From IMG/VR virus record IMGVR_UViG_3300037474_000096: a stretch of 41,300 nt of DNA; one strand, 5' to 3'. Each line of letters begins with the position of its first letter. The first letter of the stretch is position 1. Source of the stretch: a virus. A program made the position numbers and the translations under genes. Below are positions 3,577 to 41,300 of this stretch, piece by piece. The notes beneath the pieces are model-generated. The model was not told the origin of the DNA, did not search any database, and worked only from the letters and a program-made list of their open reading frames with translations.

Positions 3577-4212
3577 TCACGCGACGTACTCCGGGGTCTC
3601 GCGCGGACCGTAGATCGTGGTGACCAGCCAGCCCAGATCCGCCCGGGTGTTGCTGGCCGCGAACAGCTCGCCGGCCAGGAACTCCGACACGTCCAGCAAC
3701 TCCCTCGCACGCTCCGACACGTAGCGCGGACCAGCCGGCGTGTCCACCATCAGGCCACGGCCGCTCTCCGGGATGTCCCCGGAGAGCAGGCTCGCCCATC
3801 CCGCGAAGCAGGCCACCGTGCCGCAGTTGTCCAGCCAGACACCCTGCTCCCACGACTGCGGGTCCGCGTCGATGTGATCGAGCACCTGGTACGCCAGGGT
3901 CTTGGCGGACGGGTGGGGGTTCGCGTTCCTGGCCGTGCGCTCCACCAGCTCACGCGCGGACTGCATATCGTACGCGTCGCACTCGGCCCACTCAGTGGTC
4001 CGGAAGTAGCCGTAGCCCAGCTCCCAGTTGAGCACCTCGACACCCAGCGCGGTCAGTCGACCGTCCTCGTGCAGGACCCCGCGCCGGCGCAGCGCGGCCA
4101 GCGTGCGCTCGCCACCCTCCAGCACGTTGAAGCATCCGTAGTAACTGCCACGGATCGCGTCCAGCATGGGCTCGCTGAGTGTTTTGTGGAGTTTCTTGAT
4201 CTCGTCTCGCAT
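3577..4212 (-). CDS. Two-domain hypothetical protein: N-terminal LRRRG-type small module fused to the CGT..CFAGW paralog domain
   Basis: The start is ambiguous among 4212, 4221 and 4236. 4212 was chosen because AAGGGAGGGG lies upstream. The C-terminal half reads LAYQVLDHIDADPQSWEQGVWLDNCGTVACFAGW...IYGPRETP. Confidence 0.65.
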   Translation of the reverse strand: MRDEIKKLHKTLSEPMLDAIRGSYYGCFNVLEGGERTLAALRRRGVLHEDGRLTALGVEVLNWELGYGYFRTTEWAECDAYDMQSARELVERTARNANPHPSAKTLAYQVLDHIDADPQSWEQGVWLDNCGTVACFAGWASLLSGDIPESGRGLMVDTPAGPRYVSERARELLDVSEFLAGELFAASNTRADLGWLVTTIYGPRETPEYVA

Positions 4213-4242
4213 GATCCCCATCCCCTCCCTTGTCATCGTTAA

Positions 4243-14716: not shown

Positions 14717-14736
14717 GCATATCAACGATGTATCCT
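14717..14736. promoter_or_regulatory. Possible divergent -10 elements for leaderless starts at 14709 (minus) and 14743 (plus)
   Basis: Minus strand: TATGCT (14722-14717), 6 nt, ATG at 14709 (with the 14710 boundary counted). Plus strand: TATCCT (14731-14736), 6 nt, ATG at 14743. Neither has a good -35. A partial box ATCAACGATG is present. Confidence 0.3.
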
Positions 14737-14742
14737 CGCGGC

Positions 14743-16134
14743 ATGACGCAGGAAGTGATCACCAAGCGGGTCCAGCTTCGGGGCGCGGCACGCGCGGTGA
14801 TGGCGTGCCGCGACCCTGAAGTCTTGCTCGCTGGTCCAGCCGGTACCGGCAAGTCGTTCGCGGTGCTGTACAAGATCCATCTGATGTGCCTGAAGAACCC
14901 GGGCATGCGCGCGCTGATCGCGCGCAAGACGCACAAGTCACTGACCAGTACGGGGCTGGTCACGTTCCGCGAGCAGGTGGCGGTGGAGGCGATCAGCGCC
15001 GGCCTGCTGAAGTGGTACGGCGGAAGCGCGGAGCGGCCAGCGCAGTACACCTACGCCAACGGGTCCGTGATCGTGGTGGGTGGCATGGATCAGCCGGACA
15101 AGATCATGTCCTCGGAGTACGACGTGATCTTCATCCAAGAGGCCACCGACTGCACCCTGGACGACTGGGAGAAGGCCAACTCCCGCCTGCGCAATGGCCG
15201 CGTGTCGTTCCAGCAACTGATCGCGGACTGCAACCCGCAGGCCCCATCGCACTGGCTGAAGCGTCGCTGCGACGCCGGGCACACCACGATGCTGTACTCA
15301 CACCACGAGGACAACCCGCGCCTGTTCGATGAGGCCGGCCAGCTCACCGAGTACGGGCGCGCCTATATCGCACGCCTGGACGCGCTCACCGGCGCGCGGC
15401 TCCAGCGCCTGCGCTACGGCAAGTGGCACTCGTCCGAGGGCATGATCTACGAGTGGAACCCTGAGGTTCACCTCGTGCGCCGCGAGGACTTCGCCACCAC
15501 CGTGCGCCCCGACCGCCTCCCGCTGAAGTGGCGCAGGATCTGGACGATCGACTTCGGGTACACCAACCCGTTCGTGTGGCAGCAATGGGCGATCGACGGC
15601 GACGGCCGGATGTATCTGGAGCACGAGATCTACCGGACCAAGCGGCTGGTGGAGGACCACGCCAAGGAGATCCTGGACGTCGTGTCGTTCAGGAAGGCGG
15701 CCGGCGGCGGGATGAACAACGGGCGGGTGTGGAACTACCCCGAACCCGAGGCGGTCATCTGCGATCACGACGCGGAGGACCGCGCCACTCTGGAACGCCA
15801 CCTCGGCTTCAGCACCGTGCCAGCCACCAAGACTGTCAGCGACGGGATCCAGGCGTTCCAGAAACGGCTGGAGATCGCAGGTGACGGCCGGCCCCGGATG
15901 CTGATCTGCCGTGATGCGCTGACCGAACGCGATCGTGAGCTGGACGAGGCGAGCAAGCCGCTGTGGTTCGGTGACGAGATCGAGGGCTACGTGTGGAAGA
16001 ACCCCACCAGCGCGCGGCCCACCCTGGTTCCGGATGAGCCGCGCAAAGAAGACGATCACTCAATGGACGCCGCGCGGTACGCGGTGGCGTACCTGGACCT
16101 TCAGCCGATGCCGGGGATCAGGTGGCTGGGCTAG
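14743..16134 (+). CDS. Terminase large subunit
   Basis: Walker A LLAGPAGTGKS. Size and position fit, directly upstream of the portal module. The alternative start is 14728. Confidence 0.85.
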   Translation: MTQEVITKRVQLRGAARAVMACRDPEVLLAGPAGTGKSFAVLYKIHLMCLKNPGMRALIARKTHKSLTSTGLVTFREQVAVEAISAGLLKWYGGSAERPAQYTYANGSVIVVGGMDQPDKIMSSEYDVIFIQEATDCTLDDWEKANSRLRNGRVSFQQLIADCNPQAPSHWLKRRCDAGHTTMLYSHHEDNPRLFDEAGQLTEYGRAYIARLDALTGARLQRLRYGKWHSSEGMIYEWNPEVHLVRREDFATTVRPDRLPLKWRRIWTIDFGYTNPFVWQQWAIDGDGRMYLEHEIYRTKRLVEDHAKEILDVVSFRKAAGGGMNNGRVWNYPEPEAVICDHDAEDRATLERHLGFSTVPATKTVSDGIQAFQKRLEIAGDGRPRMLICRDALTERDRELDEASKPLWFGDEIEGYVWKNPTSARPTLVPDEPRKEDDHSMDAARYAVAYLDLQPMPGIRWLG

Positions 16135-16316
16135 AGGGCCGACTGGAAGCCAGCCACCGCATCCTTCACTTCATCGATGTCACGCAGGATTCGCGCCATG
16201 CCGGGCGATATGTCCATATCCGCCAGTGCGCGTAGATCAGCGAGCGAGAGCGCGCTCAGGTCGGCCAGGTCGGACTGGAGCTGCGCATGTCGCGCATCGT
16301 CGCTGTTCGAGTCCAT
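16131..16316 (-). CDS. FxSxx-COOH-type RiPP precursor-like peptide, 61 aa
   Basis: MDSNSDDARHAQLQSDLADLSALSLADLRALADMDISPGMARILRDIDEVKDAVAGFQSAL-stop. The C-terminus is F-Q-S-A-L. GC3 is high. The gene is antisense to the flanking late genes and shares a CTAG stop with TerL. Confidence 0.6.
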   Translation of the reverse strand: MDSNSDDARHAQLQSDLADLSALSLADLRALADMDISPGMARILRDIDEVKDAVAGFQSAL

Positions 16317-16327
16317 GCATGTCGTTG

Positions 16328-16333
16328 TACCCT
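16328..16333 (+). promoter_or_regulatory. Possible -10 (TACCCT), 6 nt upstream of the leaderless ATG at 16340
   Basis: tcgttgTACCCTgcacacATG. There is no convincing -35. Confidence 0.3.
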
Positions 16334-16339
16334 GCACAC

Positions 16340-16549
16340 ATGATCAGGTGGGAAAGGCTCGCGCTGCTGCGCACGCCGGCGCTACTGCTGGCCGCCGTGG
16401 CGCTCATCGTGACCGGGGTGTTCCAGCTCAGCACCGCCGCCGGGTTGATCTCGCTGGGTGTCGCGCTGGGCCTGCTGGCCTTCCTGTTCGATGCCACTTC
16501 GCCCGTCGGCCAGGCCGACGCCGCGCGCACGCAGGGGGTCTACCGATGA
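16340..16549 (+). CDS. Small membrane protein, 69 aa, two predicted TM helices
   Basis: Hydrophobic stretches are ALLLAAVALIVTGVF and AAGLISLGVALGLLAFLF. It is divergent from the FxSxx-like gene. Confidence 0.6.
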   Translation: MIRWERLALLRTPALLLAAVALIVTGVFQLSTAAGLISLGVALGLLAFLFDATSPVGQADAARTQGVYR

Positions 16550-16827
16550 GCGTCTCCGCACCGCAGACCGCCACCGTGACCGCTGTGCCGGCCAGCACCA
16601 CGTCGGCGGCGCTGCTGGCCGGCGGGTCCCGGCGCGGATGGGTGGTCTCCAACATCAGCGGCCAGATCGCATATCTGCGGTTCGGCTCGGGCGCGGCCAG
16701 CGCCACGGACCACACGGTCACGGTGGCGTCCGGCGCGTACTACGAGTCCCCTCAGCCGGCCTATGGCGGCCCCGTCCAGGTGGTGCTGGCCGCCGGCTCC
16801 GGCAACGTGCTGGTGACGTCGTGGTAG
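16546..16827 (+). CDS. Hypothetical protein, 93 aa
   Basis: ATG at 16546 in an ATGA overlap. The sequence is beta-rich and Ala/Ser/Thr/Val/Gly-rich. Confidence 0.6.
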   Translation: MSVSAPQTATVTAVPASTTSAALLAGGSRRGWVVSNISGQIAYLRFGSGAASATDHTVTVASGAYYESPQPAYGGPVQVVLAAGSGNVLVTSW

Positions 16828-16862
16828 AGGGCGAGCGCGAACAGTCGGACCCGAAAGACTCA

Positions 16863-17000
16863 ATGCCAGGCATCACCCGTGAAGATGTGATCGCGACGTG
16901 GCGACGGCTGACGCGTGGGTATGCGGAGCGCCTTGACGTGCAGCCGTCGCCCCGTACCATGATCAACGCAGCACAGCGCGAGGGGCGTGTGATCGAGTGA
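16863..17000 (+). CDS. Hypothetical protein, 45 aa
   Basis: ATG at 16863. Its stop overlaps the portal GTG (GTGA). Confidence 0.45.
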   Translation: MPGITREDVIATWRRLTRGYAERLDVQPSPRTMINAAQREGRVIE

Positions 17001-18628
17001 GCCGATGGATCGAACCGCTGGAGCGGGCGGTGGAGCGTCTTCAGCTCCCGTCCGCCGCGCGGCGTGAGATCCAGCGGTTCGACGGCTACGACCGCACCCC
17101 GGTCCCGCTGGCGCGCCCCATGCCCGGTGGCCGTCAGACGCTCTACGGAGACCGGTCCGGTGCGGAGCTGTATCTGACCTACCTGATGACGTACGGCCAG
17201 GACAGCGTGGTCTGGTCGATCGCGTCGCGCCTGGCGGAGAAGGTCGGCTCGGTCCCGTGGAAGCTATGGCAGCGCGCGGCCAGCGGGAAGATCGAAGATC
17301 GCAAGCAGGTCACCTCGCACGCGGTGCTGGACCTGCTCGCCAAGCCGAACGACTTCCAGAGCCTGTCGATGCTGATCGAGCAGGCGCAGATCCACTTCGA
17401 GCTGGTGGGCGAGAGTGACGTCATCCTCGGGTTCTTCGAGAACGTCGCCTACCCGCTGGACATGTGGGTGCTGCGCCCCGACCGGCTGACCCCGGTCCCG
17501 GACATGGATCGCTTCCTGGCCGGGTGGGTCTACACCTCGCCGGACCGGGCGCAGCGCATCCCGCTGGACAACCGTGAGCTGCTGCGCGTGGTGCGCCCGT
17601 CGGCCACCGACGCGTACCGGGGGCAGGGCGCGGTGCAGGCGCTGCTGCGCGACCTGGACGCGCAGCGCTTCACGAAGGAATGGCAGGCCGCGTTCTTCGA
17701 GAACAGCGCGCGCCCGGGCGGCATCATCAAGATCGATCGTCATCTGAACGATGAGCAGTGGCGGCAGATGAACCAGCGCTGGCGCGAGTCTCACCAGGGT
17801 GTCGGCAAGGCGCACCGGGTGGCCATGCTGGAGCATGGCGCGGACTGGGTGGAGACGCAGCTCAGCATGCGCGACATGCAGATGGTGGAGCTGGACAACG
17901 CGTCGCGGGACAAGACCCTTACGGCGTTCGGCATGCCGAAGTCGATGTTGGGCATCGTCGAAGACGTCAACCGCGCCAACGCGGAGGCCGGCCAGTACCT
18001 CTACTCCAGCGAGATGATCAAGCCTCGGCTGGACCGGTGGCGTTCGACGTTCAACCACAGCCTGCTCCCGCTGTTCGGCACCGGTGTTCGCTCGCTGGAG
18101 TTGGACTACGAGGACCCGACACCGGCCAACCATGAGGCAGAGCTTCAGGAGCTGGACGTCAAGGCGCGCGTGGTGGTGACCCTGGTGGGTGCCGGCATGG
18201 ACGCGTCCAAGGTGCTGGAGATGGTGGAGTGGCCGGACCTCGGCTACGCCAAGCCTGAGCCGGCCGTCGTGCCGATGCCCGTTCCGCCTGGAAAGCGGGA
18301 CGGGCAGCAGGACGACGGCCGCGATGTTTCACGTGAAACATCGCGGGACGGGGGGCGCGCGGACGCGCGGTTCATCCTGCGCGGCCTGGACACGGGCGCG
18401 GACGAATGGGACGAGATCGGCATTGACGCCGCGATGCGGTGGAAAGTCGTCGGCCACCCGGACAAGAACTGCTGCGAGCCCTGTCAAAAGAATCTTGGCA
18501 GGCTGTACCGTAACCGCACAGAGGCATATTCGGACTACCCGAACGGGCGCGCCTACATCAAGTGCGTCGGCGAGGAGTTCGGCAACCACTGTCGGTGTCG
18601 GGTGATCAAGCGGAAGGACGGCCGATGA
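16997..18628 (+). CDS. Portal protein with a C-terminal MuF/SPP1 gp7-like Cys motif extension
   Basis: 543 aa, in the position after TerL. The C-terminus reads NCCEPCQKNLGRLY...FGNHCRCRV, which resembles the CxxC...HxxCRC signature of the head-morphogenesis MuF family. Confidence 0.75.
   Translation: MSRWIEPLERAVERLQLPSAARREIQRFDGYDRTPVPLARPMPGGRQTLYGDRSGAELYLTYLMTYGQDSVVWSIASRLAEKVGSVPWKLWQRAASGKIEDRKQVTSHAVLDLLAKPNDFQSLSMLIEQAQIHFELVGESDVILGFFENVAYPLDMWVLRPDRLTPVPDMDRFLAGWVYTSPDRAQRIPLDNRELLRVVRPSATDAYRGQGAVQALLRDLDAQRFTKEWQAAFFENSARPGGIIKIDRHLNDEQWRQMNQRWRESHQGVGKAHRVAMLEHGADWVETQLSMRDMQMVELDNASRDKTLTAFGMPKSMLGIVEDVNRANAEAGQYLYSSEMIKPRLDRWRSTFNHSLLPLFGTGVRSLELDYEDPTPANHEAELQELDVKARVVVTLVGAGMDASKVLEMVEWPDLGYAKPEPAVVPMPVPPGKRDGQQDDGRDVSRETSRDGGRADARFILRGLDTGADEWDEIGIDAAMRWKVVGHPDKNCCEPCQKNLGRLYRNRTEAYSDYPNGRAYIKCVGEEFGNHCRCRVIKRKDGR
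18319..18346. repeat. 28-bp perfect palindrome with core GTTTCACGTGAAAC, inside the portal gene
   Basis: CCGCGATGTTTCACGTGAAACATCGCGG, with every pair checked. It encodes ...RDVSRETSR... in the linker before the MuF-like motif. Confidence 0.95.
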
Positions 18629-21328: not shown

Positions 21329-22057
21329 TCAGAGCGAGGCGAGGAACGCGCGCCCGATGTATTCGGAGTACGCGGGAGGGATCGCCTCGCACAGATCGAA
21401 TCGATCCGTCATCCAGTCGATACCCATGGCGTGCCGCAATTCCTCCGCGGTGGCCTTCCCTCCGCCCGCACCGTAGCCGGCCACGTACGGACCCTCACGC
21501 ACCACGCCGTGCCGCCACCCGCGAACGTAGCCGGTGTGCTTCGGATGAGCCATGGGTGCCATCTCGTGCATCGGCACCGGCCAGTGGCCGAACTCGAACG
21601 AGCGGTGCTTCTGCACCCAGGGGGGTGGTAGTTCGCCCTTGAACATGTCCATGCACAGGGTCAGGTCGCGACGGATCAAACCCTTGCGGCTGGAGGTGGG
21701 CTGCTCGATGACGTACGGGATGCCGAGCCGGTCGGACAGTTCGCGCGCCCGGGGGATGAACTGCTCGTGCGCGTCCACGATCCCGCGCGCCCGATTGCTC
21801 GCCGTAGCCGTGTTCCCGTCCTGGCACGGCCACGACTGATGGATGAGCGCGGGACGTTCGCCCAGGTCGGAGATGTGCGGGCCGAATTTCGTCTCGCCCA
21901 GGAAGCACAGCCCGTCGGCCTGGATGAACTCGTCACCCGGGTAGCCGGGCTGCGGCTCGATGTCCACGCCGATGACGTAGAGGCCGGCGCGTTGATAGCC
22001 GACAGTCGCGCCACCCTTGCGGCAGCAGATGTCCAGCAGGATCGGTTTGCTTGTCAC
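21329..22057 (-). CDS. DNA (cytosine-5)-methyltransferase, short form (242 aa)
   Basis: Motif I-like LLDICCRKGG, motif IV SWPCQD, YVIEQP (ENV-like) and motif X-like EAIPPAYSEYIG. The leaderless GTG at 22057 lies 6 nt after a TAATCT -10. Confidence 0.75.
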   Translation of the reverse strand: MTSKPILLDICCRKGGATVGYQRAGLYVIGVDIEPQPGYPGDEFIQADGLCFLGETKFGPHISDLGERPALIHQSWPCQDGNTATASNRARGIVDAHEQFIPRARELSDRLGIPYVIEQPTSSRKGLIRRDLTLCMDMFKGELPPPWVQKHRSFEFGHWPVPMHEMAPMAHPKHTGYVRGWRHGVVREGPYVAGYGAGGGKATAEELRHAMGIDWMTDRFDLCEAIPPAYSEYIGRAFLASL

Positions 22058-36847: not shown

Positions 36848-37060
36848 CTATCGCTTGCGTTCGTCGCCGTCCATCGCCCACATGACCGCCCAGGTGATCG
36901 CGGCGGTCAGTATCACGCTGGTCACTAGCGTGATACTGGCGAAGATGATCGCAACCGCCATCGATGATCCGTCGGCCAGGCTGGCCGCGAACAGCGCGCC
37001 AAAGAAGAGCAGCGTGGTGCAGCTCAACACCATGATCAGACGGCGATGACTCCTGATCAT
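36848..37060 (-). CDS. Small membrane protein, 70 aa, two TM helices, last gene of the leftward arm
   Basis: ATGA overlap with the upstream stop. It is convergent with the lysis genes, with a 10-bp gap. Confidence 0.6.
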   Translation of the reverse strand: MIRSHRRLIMVLSCTTLLFFGALFAASLADGSSMAVAIIFASITLVTSVILTAAITWAVMWAMDGDERKR

Positions 37061-37422
37061 GCCGTGCGCTCCGGCATCGAGTCCGGACGCGGGCCGAACA
37101 GCTCCTCCACGCAGAGCTGAAGATCCGCGCGGGTGTTCCCGCTGGCGAACAACCGGAACCCGTTGGTGAGGCCAAGCAGTTCGAGGGCGCGCACATCGGC
37201 GCGCTCACCGGACGCCAGCCAGTATGCCTCGTCCCCATCGAGTCCGATGAACCCCTGACGCTCGTAGTCCGGCATCTCGCCGGAGAGCAGGCACGTCCAG
37301 CCCGCGAAGCAGGCGGTGGTGCCGCAGTCCGTCATGGTGAAGAACCAGCCCTGATCCCACAGCTCAGGGTGGGCGTCGATCTGATCGAGCACCCGATAGG
37401 CCAGCTCCGCGTTCGGCTCCAT
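37057..37422 (-). CDS. Member 3 of the CGT..CFAGW paralog family
   Basis: MEPNAELAYRVLDQIDAHPELWDQ...DCGTTACFAGW...ELFGPRPD. Confidence 0.7.
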   Translation of the reverse strand: MEPNAELAYRVLDQIDAHPELWDQGWFFTMTDCGTTACFAGWTCLLSGEMPDYERQGFIGLDGDEAYWLASGERADVRALELLGLTNGFRLFASGNTRADLQLCVEELFGPRPDSMPERTA

Positions 37423-37727
37423 CACCACCTCACCGCCAGAGCGAGGGCGCTCGCGCCGCCGGCGACGAACACGGCCAGCATGGCAAGCGGGGGACTAACC
37501 TCGTTGGCCGCCGGGGCGAGCGCGAGGATCATCCCCACCGGAACGAGGATGATGACCTTCGCCAGCCACTGCGGCATGGTGTAGCGGCGCGGGGTGCGCG
37601 GCGCGCGCCGCCGGCCCTTGCCCGGGCGCGCGATCTGCGGGGCGGGCGCGGTGGCCGCCTCCATCCATCGCTGCCAGTTGACTTCTTCGGCGGAGAAGAT
37701 GTCCACGCCGGCATCCATCGTGGTCAC
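37422..37727 (-). CDS. Membrane protein, 101 aa, two C-terminal TM helices
   Basis: GTG at 37727 in a GTGA overlap. Hydrophobic stretches are WLAKVIILVPVGMILALAPAA and LAMLAVFVAGGASALALAV. Confidence 0.6.
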   Translation of the reverse strand: MTTMDAGVDIFSAEEVNWQRWMEAATAPAPQIARPGKGRRRAPRTPRRYTMPQWLAKVIILVPVGMILALAPAANEVSPPLAMLAVFVAGGASALALAVRW

Positions 37728-38095
37728 GGCCGCTCCCCGAAGATGTTCTCCACCAGGATCTGAAGGTCCGCGCGGCTGTTCCACATGTGGAACAGTGACG
37801 GACTGTCGTCCGTCTCGCTCAGCTCCGCGTAGTAGCTCAGCGCCGGCGCGATGTCCTGATCCGCACTGTCGTCGGAGATCCCGAGCAGCTCAAACGCGCG
37901 GATTTGAGTGTGAACCTTGCGATCGCCCACCCGGACGTAGCTCCCGTTCATCATCGCGTCCTCGCCATCGCTGAGCACCACCGCCCAGCCAGCGAAGCAT
38001 CCGCTAGTCCCGCACCACCAGCGTTTCTGGTCCCAGCGCTCCGGGTGGGCGTCGATCTGATCGAGCACCCGGTACGCCAACTCCGCGTTCGGCAT
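37724..38095 (-). CDS. Member 4 of the CGT..CFAGW paralog family
   Basis: ATG at 38095 with GGAGAAAAGGA upstream. The sequence reads MPNAELAYRVLDQIDAHPERWDQ...CGTSGCFAGW...NIFGERP-stop. Confidence 0.7.
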   Translation of the reverse strand: MPNAELAYRVLDQIDAHPERWDQKRWWCGTSGCFAGWAVVLSDGEDAMMNGSYVRVGDRKVHTQIRAFELLGISDDSADQDIAPALSYYAELSETDDSPSLFHMWNSRADLQILVENIFGERP

Positions 38096-38179
38096 ATCCT
38101 TTTCTCCCATCTTCGAGGGTTTAGCCCAGTACGACCAGGGGCTGTTTATGTCCTCCTAGCCGTACCGGGGATGCGTTCT

Positions 38180-40059: not shown

Positions 40060-40749
40060 CTACGCGGTTCTCCCGGGCAGAATCCAGGTCGCACCCTCGC
40101 GCCCGAGGAGCTGGCCGGCCAGAGCGCCCGGAGTCACCGCCTGATGCGCAACCCCCTGCATTACCCGCTTGCCGGCCAGTGACCACGCCTGGTCCGCGAG
40201 GACCGAGCAGATCGCTTCGGCGGGGAGGCATGCTGTGAACATCTGCCCGGGCCACGGCCCCTTCCGGTGAATCACGGGACTCGCGGGACACGGCTCGCAC
40301 CGCCGGTCGATCCAGCGCTCCAACCGAGGTGTCTTGATCCCCCACTTCCACGCGGCCAGTGCGGCGTAGGACGCGAACGAATAGGGGATCTTCTCACTGA
40401 CGAACAGGCGAGCGATCGCGGCCGCATCCTCCGCTTGGCCGGGGTAGTCCTCCGGCAAGCGTACGTAGGCGTGGCGCGGCGTCCAGTGCGTGGCCGGGGA
40501 CATCTCAATCTCTTCCGCGCCGTGCGGCATGGCCTGGACGAGACGAGGGCCGTCGTTGCGTGAGAGGCGTTCCGTACGCGCCTGCACCACGATGCCGACG
40601 TGCCGGACCTTGAGCGCGCCCACGTCGAACAGCTCACCGAGCATGGCCTGGCCGACGCCCACCGGGAAGATGCCAGGCACGATCCCGCCGATGGGTCCGA
40701 ACATCAGATCACCCGGGCGAAGGTCAGCGAGGCTAGCCGGCAAGGTCAT
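40060..40749 (-). CDS. Permuted papain-fold (NlpC/P60 superfamily, YiiX-like) hydrolase candidate
   Basis: ORF trimmed to the ATG at 40749. It has LRPGDLMFGPIGG and VRHVGIVV (His) ahead of AEAICSVLADQAW (Cys helix), an order typical of permuted members. Confidence 0.45.
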   Translation of the reverse strand: MTLPASLADLRPGDLMFGPIGGIVPGIFPVGVGQAMLGELFDVGALKVRHVGIVVQARTERLSRNDGPRLVQAMPHGAEEIEMSPATHWTPRHAYVRLPEDYPGQAEDAAAIARLFVSEKIPYSFASYAALAAWKWGIKTPRLERWIDRRCEPCPASPVIHRKGPWPGQMFTACLPAEAICSVLADQAWSLAGKRVMQGVAHQAVTPGALAGQLLGREGATWILPGRTA

Positions 40750-40942
40750 CGAACTCCCCCGCCTTGGCCCCGGCCAGGAAGGCGGCGAACTCCTCACGCG
40801 TGAACGCCATCCACTTCGTGCGCCACCTCGAATGACGCACGAGAACATCACTGCTGATGTCGCTGCGCTTGGCCTCCACGCAGTTGTTGCCACCGTTGCC
40901 GTTACTGAAGCTACTCTTACGCCACTCGAACGGGTTCACCAT
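40733..40942 (-). CDS. DUF397 (BldB-like) domain protein
   Basis: MVNPFEWRKSSFSNGNGGNNCVEA...VRHSR...FTREEFAAFLAGAKAGEFD matches the WRKSS.S...GNCVE...F....W.AF...K.GEFD pattern. GAGGAG lies 7 nt upstream. Confidence 0.75.
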   Translation of the reverse strand: MVNPFEWRKSSFSNGNGGNNCVEAKRSDISSDVLVRHSRWRTKWMAFTREEFAAFLAGAKAGEFDDLAG

Positions 40943-41270
40943 GGTCCTGCTCCTCTCCGATGTACTTCGCGTACACCGCCTGCTCTCCGGTGCAGCGGGA
41001 GCGATAGACGGCGTAGAACGCGCCGGCCGGACGCCAGCACTGAATGCGCCCCTCGTTGACAGCGGCGGCCAGCGCGGACGCGCGGGTCTTCGGACCCTCG
41101 AAGATCAGTCCCCACCGGCCGGGATGGGCGGCCAGCGCGAGCGCCACCGCATCCCATTGCGACCCCGCCCGCCGGCCTTGACCGGTCCGAGGGTCCGGGT
41201 TCACCCGATGCGGCGGGCGCGGTTTCTCCCACCGCAGGATTCGCCGCTGGCCGTGGTCTAGCTCGGCCAC
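40917..41270 (-). CDS. Hypothetical protein, 117 aa, paralog of 6239..6535. Its start lies in the terminal repeat
   Basis: The GTG at 41270 (equivalent to position 97) overlaps the stop of the 85..270 gene across the junction. Confidence 0.65.
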   Translation of the reverse strand: MAELDHGQRRILRWEKPRPPHRVNPDPRTGQGRRAGSQWDAVALALAAHPGRWGLIFEGPKTRASALAAAVNEGRIQCWRPAGAFYAVYRSRCTGEQAVYAKYIGEEQDHGEPVRVA

Positions 41271-41300
41271 TGGGGCACCTCTCCGTCGGCCAGCGGACGG
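41174..41300. repeat. Terminal direct repeat, copy 2 (identical to 1-127)
   Basis: See copy 1. Confidence 0.95.

Follow-up and report, generated by a model that had tools for sequence, protein, structure and literature searches.

An orphan FxSxx-COOH (FxsA)-like precursor gene carried as a cassette between the terminase and portal genes of a phage genome

The virus record IMGVR_UViG_3300037474_000096, a stretch of 41,300 nucleotides referred to below as the window, carries a small antisense open reading frame (ORF) in the interval between its terminase and portal genes. The 61-residue product ends in F-x-S-x-x at the carboxyl terminus, as do the FxSxx-COOH (FxsA) peptides, a family of precursors of RiPPs, peptides that are ribosomally synthesised and then modified post-translationally. 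An initial annotation of the locus had suggested on this ground that the window encodes a maturase-less member of the family, which could use a host maturase or act as a decoy or mimic. Why would a phage carry the precursor and none of the enzymes that act on it? We find that the peptide is homologous to cellular FxsA, that it is an orphan in its genome, that its gene behaves as a cassette, and that such genes recur in phages.

Is the ORF a gene at all? It occupies 16131-16316 (-), is intact from ATG to stop, and translates as MDSNSDDARHAQLQSDLADLSALSLADLRALADMDISPGMARILRDIDEVKDAVAGFQSAL, with the C-terminal end ...DAVAGFQSAL that had been read at the outset. An upstream in-frame GTG at 16337 would lengthen the peptide to 68 amino acids; the ATG is preferred because family members begin with “MD”, and two independent gene calls made the same choice. 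GC content at codon positions 1/2/3 is 0.73/0.40/0.76 in a genome of 67% GC, and the low second-position GC (0.40) together with a GC3 of 0.76 is clearly a coding-type pattern. The “high GC3” of the initial annotation therefore stands in the sense that the ORF looks coding-like, but its value is lower than the 0.82-0.97 of the phage’s own genes. Two long plus-strand ORFs that overlap the region (15935-16549 and 16177-16827) were rejected as genes here, both because their GC-frame pattern is non-coding and because of an indel in a close relative described below. The bare F-x-S-x-x ending is weak evidence by itself: it is found in 1 of the 592 stop-to-stop segments of at least 40 amino acids in the window, with one chance case at an unrelated locus. 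Judged on sequence features as a whole, the ORF is very probably a real, expressed gene.

We then asked whether the similarity to FxSxx-COOH peptides goes beyond the last few residues. TIGR04268, the NCBIfam model of the FxSxx-COOH cyclophane-containing RiPP peptide, aligns over its full length (profile positions 1-44 of 44) with residues 18-61 and reaches the C-terminus, at E 6.7e-5 and 23.0 bits, a score below the curated cutoff of 28 bits; the hmmsearch that the initial annotation had proposed succeeded over the profile and fell short of the threshold. For PF27839, the newer Pfam family FxSxx-COOH, a precomputed match is on record for exactly this protein (E<=1e-5). The length of 61 amino acids and the end ...AGFQSAL agree with the small peptides of the family (about 50-75 amino acids, F-x-S-x-x-COOH). 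In a family alignment (A2), 12 of 12 members including the window peptide match TIGR04268 at E<=0.01 (best 9.3e-16). A word-indexed single-sequence search recovered only the window protein itself, and the homologues came from an exhaustive phmmer search of 1.84 billion protein representatives. This gave 12 matches, 11 of them peptides of 53-71 amino acids aligned to their very C-termini (E 1e-8 to 3e-4); ten of these 11 end in [AVI][AS]G[FW]QS plus two residues, and the remaining one, P0006, has three (...GFQSGMP). A profile made from the matches retrieves 225 proteins, mostly from Micromonosporaceae, many of which are named FxSxx-COOH by NCBI or JGI. Identity to the closest family members is 57-65%, the closest genome-derived homologue being that of Actinoplanes liguriensis (60-65% amino-acid and 76% nucleotide identity). 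Back-translated single-pattern scans returned 3 loci among genome contigs and 2 among metagenome contigs.

Shuffle controls were run on a hidden Markov model (HMM) made exclusively from cellular members, 63 in all. On this model the window peptide reaches 70.1 bits, a value somewhat inflated because the members were gathered via similarity to this same peptide; the members’ own scores are 64-97 bits. The best of 2000 whole-sequence shuffles reached 12.5 bits, and 2000 shuffles of the leader alone, with the last 10 residues kept, gave a mean of 16.9 and a best of 37.7 bits. Because shuffling the leader alone collapses the score, leader and core are both homologous to cellular FxsA, and the acidic, Leu-rich leader that the initial annotation had pointed out is borne out with its family assignment. 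By these measures, the full-length similarity of the peptide to FxSxx-COOH precursors is far above chance, and sequence comparison confirms it as a full-length FxsA precursor homologue. It is best described as a sequence member of PF27839 that fails both the strict TIGR04268 equivalog cutoff and the genomic context of the family, i.e. as a phage-borne orphan variant.

The two parts of the precursor can be mapped on the gene. The core region, the last 10 codons (DAVAGFQSAL, 16134-16163 (-)), shows the strongest conservation in the family (AVAGFQSA[IL]), and its F-Q-S is the presumed site of a Phe-to-Ser cyclophane crosslink. The cyclophane chemistry is assigned from the NCBIfam family name and from PMC10114670, where FxsB is among the radical-SAM (rSAM)-SPASM enzymes shown to form cyclophanes. 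The leader (SDLADLSALSLADLRAL...ARILRDIDE, 16164-16316 (-)) is homologous to cellular leaders. With FxsA peptides the window peptide shares its size of 61 amino acids, an acidic Leu-rich leader with DLxDLSxLSLxDLR and RRIL motifs, and the C-terminal DAVAGFQSA[IL]-COOH. It differs from them in being phage-encoded, without FxsB, peptidase, STAND/TIR or MoxR-VMAP neighbours, and the tails of its syntenic phage relatives are non-canonical (FGSYID, FQSYASS).

What accompanies the peptide in cells? At the loci of P0003, P0017, P0105 and Actinoplanes, a radical-SAM protein with a CxxxCxxC motif directly follows FxsA. In three of them (P0003, P0017 and Actinoplanes) a HExxH protein of ~611 amino acids comes after it, and a 1300-1400-amino-acid NB-ARC/TPR or TIR/TPR protein is found nearby; P0003 has an additional separate TIR protein, and the P0017 and Actinoplanes loci also encode a MoxR AAA_5 ATPase and a VMAP protein. 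Beside the FxsA of P0105 (L111), only the radical-SAM protein is evident. These neighbourhoods agree with the partners (FxsC, FxsT) that the initial annotation had named. Kaur, Burroughs, Iyer and Aravind (2020; PMC7159879) described peptide-processing modules attached to VMAP-ternary (vWA-MoxR) conflict systems in multicellular actinobacteria, and predicted that the metallopeptidase cleaves the peptide, that the rSAM-SPASM enzyme modifies it, and that the product is a toxin or an amplifying signal. The cellular homologues of the window peptide sit in exactly such loci, whereas the phage has the peptide component only, and the function of the system is itself a prediction. One cellular locus is arranged differently: at L014:1670-3667 the FxsA homologue P0022 (...AVAGFQSAIW) is directly followed by a homologue of the HExxH peptidase, with no radical-SAM gene between them. 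Therefore, rSAM-less Fxs loci occur in cells too.

In the window, are the partners missing from the phage, or from an incomplete contig? The contig ends carry an exact 127-bp direct repeat (1-127 and 41174-41300), which makes the window a circular and complete phage genome (about 41.2 kb) rather than a host-flanked prophage. Because the ends overlap by 127 bp, the tRNA-Thr(CGT) gene at 1938-2010 is phage-borne and not part of a host flank; no attL/attR sites were found in the window. PHROGs and Pfam identified terminase, portal, head protease, major head protein, prim-pol/helicase, superfamily-2 helicase, RusA-like resolvase and DNA methyltransferase genes, and no integrase or repressor was recognised by them in this genome. 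Both scans show only phage replication and structural genes, and no Fxs partner family linked to the peptide gene. The CxxxCxxC motif is absent from all coding-like ORFs of the window, and tblastn of the window with FxsB from L017 gave a best E of 0.13, with no maturase adjacent to the peptide gene. Seven Fxs partners taken from L010 and L017 (FxsB, the HExxH protein, both STAND types, the TIR protein, MoxR and VMAP) had no tblastn match at E<=0.01 in the window or in the three other phages with such a peptide described below (L013, L024 and L028). The absence of partners that had been noted from the start is thus that of a complete genome without a radical-SAM maturase, peptidase, TIR/STAND, MoxR or VMAP gene.

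Is the gene a fixed part of this genome? Upstream of it on the plus strand lies the gene of the terminase large subunit (terL, 14728-16134 (+); phrog_2, E 1.5e-30), whose stop overlaps that of the peptide gene within a CTAG. On the other side, a 23-nucleotide spacer (16317-16339) separates the divergent starts of the peptide gene and of a gene for a 69-amino-acid membrane protein (16340-16549 (+)), which is kept in all members of the clade, with or without the peptide gene. A conserved protein of 93 amino acids follows (16546-16827 (+)), present across the clade and without a family match, and then the HK97-type portal protein (16997-18628 (+); phrog_2662, E 1.7e-58; PF04860). The description “between terminase and portal” is accurate for the flanks, but two small plus-strand genes separate the ORF from the portal gene. 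The blastn breakpoints and the alignment against L003 (IMGVR_UViG_3300037511_000392) define a 190-bp cassette at 16137-16326 that is essentially the peptide ORF: L003 is ~95% identical over terL and from the membrane-protein gene on, and 89 unrelated bp replace the 190 bp. The gene is unchanged in a fragment 98.65% identical to the window (L002) and in a Logan contig (L001).

More distant relatives show what else can occupy this spot. Among phages with portals 58-62% identical to that of the window, two (L024 and L028; portals 62%) have a small antisense gene in the corresponding position. The peptide of L024 (ENA ‘dsDNA_phage_42’, 41.8 kb), MDDETMPDLTHVSLAELRERAPIDNAALRRVLDEMELGETVCPFGSYID, matches PF27839 weakly and TIGR04268 in its leader alone, and the cellular-only HMM gives it 23 bits (E 4e-5); that of L028 is MDDLSSVPLAELRERALAARRPALVLLLAEPDDEEPEIFPFQSYASS. 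Both retain F-x-S and the leader motif DLxxVxLAELR, and both have added a second aromatic-x-x triplet (YID, YAS), which leaves 3-4 residues after the Ser. Regarding C-terminal conservation in related phages, then, F-x-S is kept where the gene is kept, but the two-residue tail is not. A box, TCATCCTAG, lies 4-5 nucleotides before the ATG in both L024 and L028, a position that would fit a leaderless mRNA in these phages, and in L024 a perfect hairpin, a terminator, follows the stop of the peptide gene. In L027, whose portal is 81% identical to that of L024, the flanking signals are kept and the ORF is cleanly deleted. L026 has a C5-type DNA methyltransferase in the same interval, which is typical counter-defence cargo, and in L029/L030 it is filled by nine small plus-strand genes, including six paralogues of ~87-90 amino acids. 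Among 79 more distant IMG/VR portal relatives (<=51% identity), six-frame hmmsearch found no FxsA-like ORF, and distant relatives have no insert.

The terL-portal gap (window 16135-16996, with its equivalents in L024-L030) is an accessory-gene hotspot, empty in L003 and L027, and three genes are always found beside the portal gene in this clade: those of a 68-82-amino-acid membrane protein, a ~94-amino-acid protein and a ~55-64-amino-acid protein. About 20 nucleotides upstream of the membrane-protein gene, L024 (3255-3300), L028 (1695-1735) and L027 (3038-3078) carry on the plus strand a GC-rich hairpin of 12-13 bp followed by UUUU(U)CCC. Its stems differ among the three phages in a compensatory manner between conserved flanks, and the loop is the same in L024 and L028 and different in L027. 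This hairpin resembles an intrinsic terminator inside the late gene array, and it is absent from the window and L003. A second antisense moron stands in the structural module of the window, directly after the major head gene: a DNA methyltransferase gene at 21329-22057 (-) (phrog_363, E 4.6e-21), of the same family as the hotspot gene of L026.

With a discrete indel, conserved flanks, variable cargo, and terminator hairpins in L024 and L013, the peptide gene has the attributes of a moron or accessory cassette; a promoter of its own is only putative in the window. Phage morons, or lysogenic-conversion cassettes, include lambda bor and lom. The likeness to these lies in a small, independently oriented gene between conserved late genes, in its presence or absence in near-identical phages, and in the relatives’ own terminator, and the difference in the cargo, a RiPP precursor, for which we found no phage precedent. 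In sequence, the window peptide resembles cellular FxsA far more than it does its syntenic counterparts in L024 and L028; one old capture or repeated replacement may account for this.

Does the peptide occur in phages outside this clade? L013 (IMGVR_UViG_3300010397_000057), a temperate phage of 46.5 kb, encodes MDADDEPLALPDPAELSFARLRAQSPALVELLDRMRKEMEQPKDAVAGFQSSI, which ends ...DAVAGFQSSI and clears the TIGR04268 cutoff with 30.3 bits. Its gene has lysis-like genes before it and HicAB, an integrase and an Xre-type gene beyond it, and a terminator (a hairpin with a T-run) follows it. The HicA/HicB-like toxin-antitoxin pair directly downstream (L013:8332-8947) is preceded by a TTGACA...TACGCT promoter-like site, and small conflict-type cargo is clustered by the integrase of this phage. 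A kinship of L013 with the window phage was rejected, since tblastx gave only short spurious segments. The coding-type GC pattern is seen in all four phage peptide genes (window, L013, L024 and L028), and F-x-S is kept in all four peptides. Beyond these, such genes are rare. Pattern scans of 2.9 million IMG/VR contigs with two family alignments found only a 5.5-kb fragment of the window phage and L013, i.e. two lineages, and a scan with an alignment of the L024/L028 type found nothing. No match to the peptide was obtained by tblastn against 50,697 GenBank phage records, no PHROGs family matches it, and in the literature searched no paper links FxSxx-COOH peptides to phages; the statement that no phage-encoded member had been described agrees with all three.

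How could a lone precursor be of use to a phage? We propose that the gene is an accessory, moron-type gene for an FxsA-homologous precursor that lacks its modifying enzyme. Actinobacterial FxsA is the substrate of FxsB, a radical-SAM/SPASM three-residue cyclophane synthase, and of the large HExxH peptidase, whose genes, like fxsA, are embedded in predicted conflict systems of STAND NTPases with TPR and/or TIR domains and MoxR-VMAP modules. On infection, the Fxs enzymes of the host would bind the phage peptide and possibly process it; the peptide, or the occupation of the enzymes by it, would then shift the output of the host Fxs-STAND system. The favoured outcome would be interference, with the peptide serving as a competitive substrate, a decoy or an antagonist ligand in counter-defence. 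RiPP leaders are the part recognised by maturases. Since conservation falls on the leader and on F-x-S, the peptide would most likely engage host FxsB and the peptidase, and interference is favoured because the hotspot is shared with a methyltransferase, the gene is dispensable and the core is diversifying in phages. That the host maturase is used, or that the peptide is a decoy or mimic, as proposed in the initial annotation, is plausible and is strengthened by the recurrence in phages and by the presence/absence polymorphism.

These propositions are not equally firm. Action of the peptide through the host Fxs system appears reasonably probable from the sequence evidence, and an orphan FxsA-like moron acting on host Fxs machinery, most likely by interference, is the explanation that best combines the observations and one towards which we lean slightly. 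A specific role in counter-defence is more tentative and falls short of an even chance, with inhibition in place of activation being a guess. Doubtful, in our estimate, is the most explicit version, according to which phages of filamentous actinobacteria repeatedly captured only the precursor peptide of Fxs/VMAP-STAND-TIR systems, as a mimic that is loaded onto the host radical-SAM enzyme and peptidase and either jams the cyclophane signal or yields an antagonist. Viral orphan parts that rely on host immune machinery have precedents in the phage pseudo-ToxI antitoxin RNA, in antitoxins such as T4 Dmd and in viral mini-CRISPR arrays. As in those cases, the mobile element brings from a multi-gene host system just the small substrate or ligand and depends on the host for the enzymes; the difference lies in the chemistry, here presumably that of a RiPP precursor.

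Several observations weigh against action on a host Fxs system. The Fxs partner system is not a validated anti-phage defence: PADLOC returned generic domain matches only for the partner proteins, with no dedicated models, and the role of the cellular peptide as toxin, signal or ligand is itself predicted only. Portal homologues, nearly all of them from metagenomes, do not point to a host (those from Streptomyces, the nearest with a name, are at 41-43% identity), and a host Fxs locus is presumed. The gene is dispensable, as close relatives without it (L003, L027) attest, and no nucleotide differs between its copies in the window, L001 and L002, which leaves nothing from which selection within the phage lineage could be measured. 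To these may be added the TIGR04268 score below its cutoff and the manner in which the members of the cellular-only HMM were collected. Signals for expression in the window are also faint. No Shine-Dalgarno sequence is visible before the ATG in the spacer, and the mRNA may for this reason be leaderless; the spacer has a weak -10-like TACAAC at -13 to -8, and a consensus promoter/terminator scan found neither for the peptide gene, nor any convincing sigma-70-type promoter.

The main rival, especially for the temperate L013, is that the gene arms the host. Extra precursor supplied by a phage, perhaps as a prophage, would prime or trigger the host Fxs-STAND system against competitors (superinfection exclusion), or a mature toxin or bacteriocin made with host enzymes would benefit the lysogen. 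The L013 copy does lie in a classical lysogenic-conversion position, by HicAB and an integrase and with its own terminator, the window gene is antisense to the late operon as are many prophage-expressed morons, and a toxin or amplifying signal is what PMC7159879 proposes for the processed peptide. However, neither an integrase nor a repressor was recognised in the window genome, and effectors of the abortive-infection type (TIR, STAND) would be risky for the arming phage itself; we regard this explanation as unlikely, if a serious one. Less likely still is a function independent of Fxs, in which the unmodified peptide has some other target, in the phage or the host, or carries arbitrium-like signals between phages, and the family resemblance reflects ancestry only. 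The leader motif survives in the peptides of L024 and L028, whereas AVAG and the two-residue tail are gone, which suggests that the leader may matter and not the canonical core, and the cellular locus L014 does without an rSAM enzyme. Yet none of the four phage peptides has lost F-x-S, the window encodes no TPR protein or other candidate receptor, and conservation of the leader is what recognition by a RiPP maturase would lead one to expect.

The remaining explanations deny the gene a role. It could be a passenger, a fragment of host DNA brought in by illegitimate recombination, neutral and heading for loss, as the presence/absence polymorphism (L003, L027), a GC3 below the phage norm and the lack of clear expression signals in the window might suggest. 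But the ORF in the insert is whole, from start to stop, and lacks none of the conserved family positions, despite being only ~60-65% identical (76% in nucleotides) to the nearest cellular gene; intact FxS peptides are found at the same locus in phages with portals only 62-77% identical, a second, unrelated phage carries one, and L024 and L028 have a conserved upstream box in common. A mere passenger is thus improbable. As for a chance antisense ORF that is no gene, the ORF is short and antisense to an operon, and an FxSxx ending alone arises at about the chance rate. Against this, the full-length HMM and phmmer similarity is far above that of shuffles, a GC2 of 0.40 is a coding signature, the plus-strand frames are non-coding there, and the stretch is missing from L003 with the neighbouring genes undisturbed. 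The phmmer and profile homologues and the shuffle controls effectively refute this reading, to which we attach next to no probability.

Two further groups of genes in the window were noted. Three to four paralogues of phrog_889 / phrog_30739, all on the minus strand, are found at 2136-2549, 3577-4236, 37057-37428 and 37724-38110, and two of them have the N-terminal motif NAELAYRVLDQIDAHPE in common. A DUF397-like small protein (MVNPFEWRKSSFSNG...) is encoded at 40733-40942 (-), with a copy in a relative at L026:86-292; its domain is typical of filamentous actinomycetes and gives a weak hint at the host group.

What would an orphan precursor mean for the biology of this family? Among filamentous actinobacteria, FxSxx-COOH peptides are widespread together with their TIR/STAND/VMAP neighbours, and what is known of their biology comes from comparative genomics and cyclophane enzymology only. 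To our knowledge, nobody has shown how the peptide acts, or an antiviral role of the Fxs system. A virus that carries the peptide alone is a natural experiment, the more so given two unrelated lineages, presence and absence among relatives, and a hotspot shared with a methyltransferase. Should the gene prove inert, the finding would shrink to another small moron of host origin. A phage-borne peptide suggests a role in phage-host conflict, and it is a small and easily tested reagent. If it is a mimic, it would be the first RiPP-precursor-based viral counter-defence, and genetics would for the first time support an antiviral role of Fxs/VMAP systems and their signalling via a modified peptide. 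Phage auxiliary genes would also gain a category, that of maturase-less RiPP precursors dependent on host enzymes.

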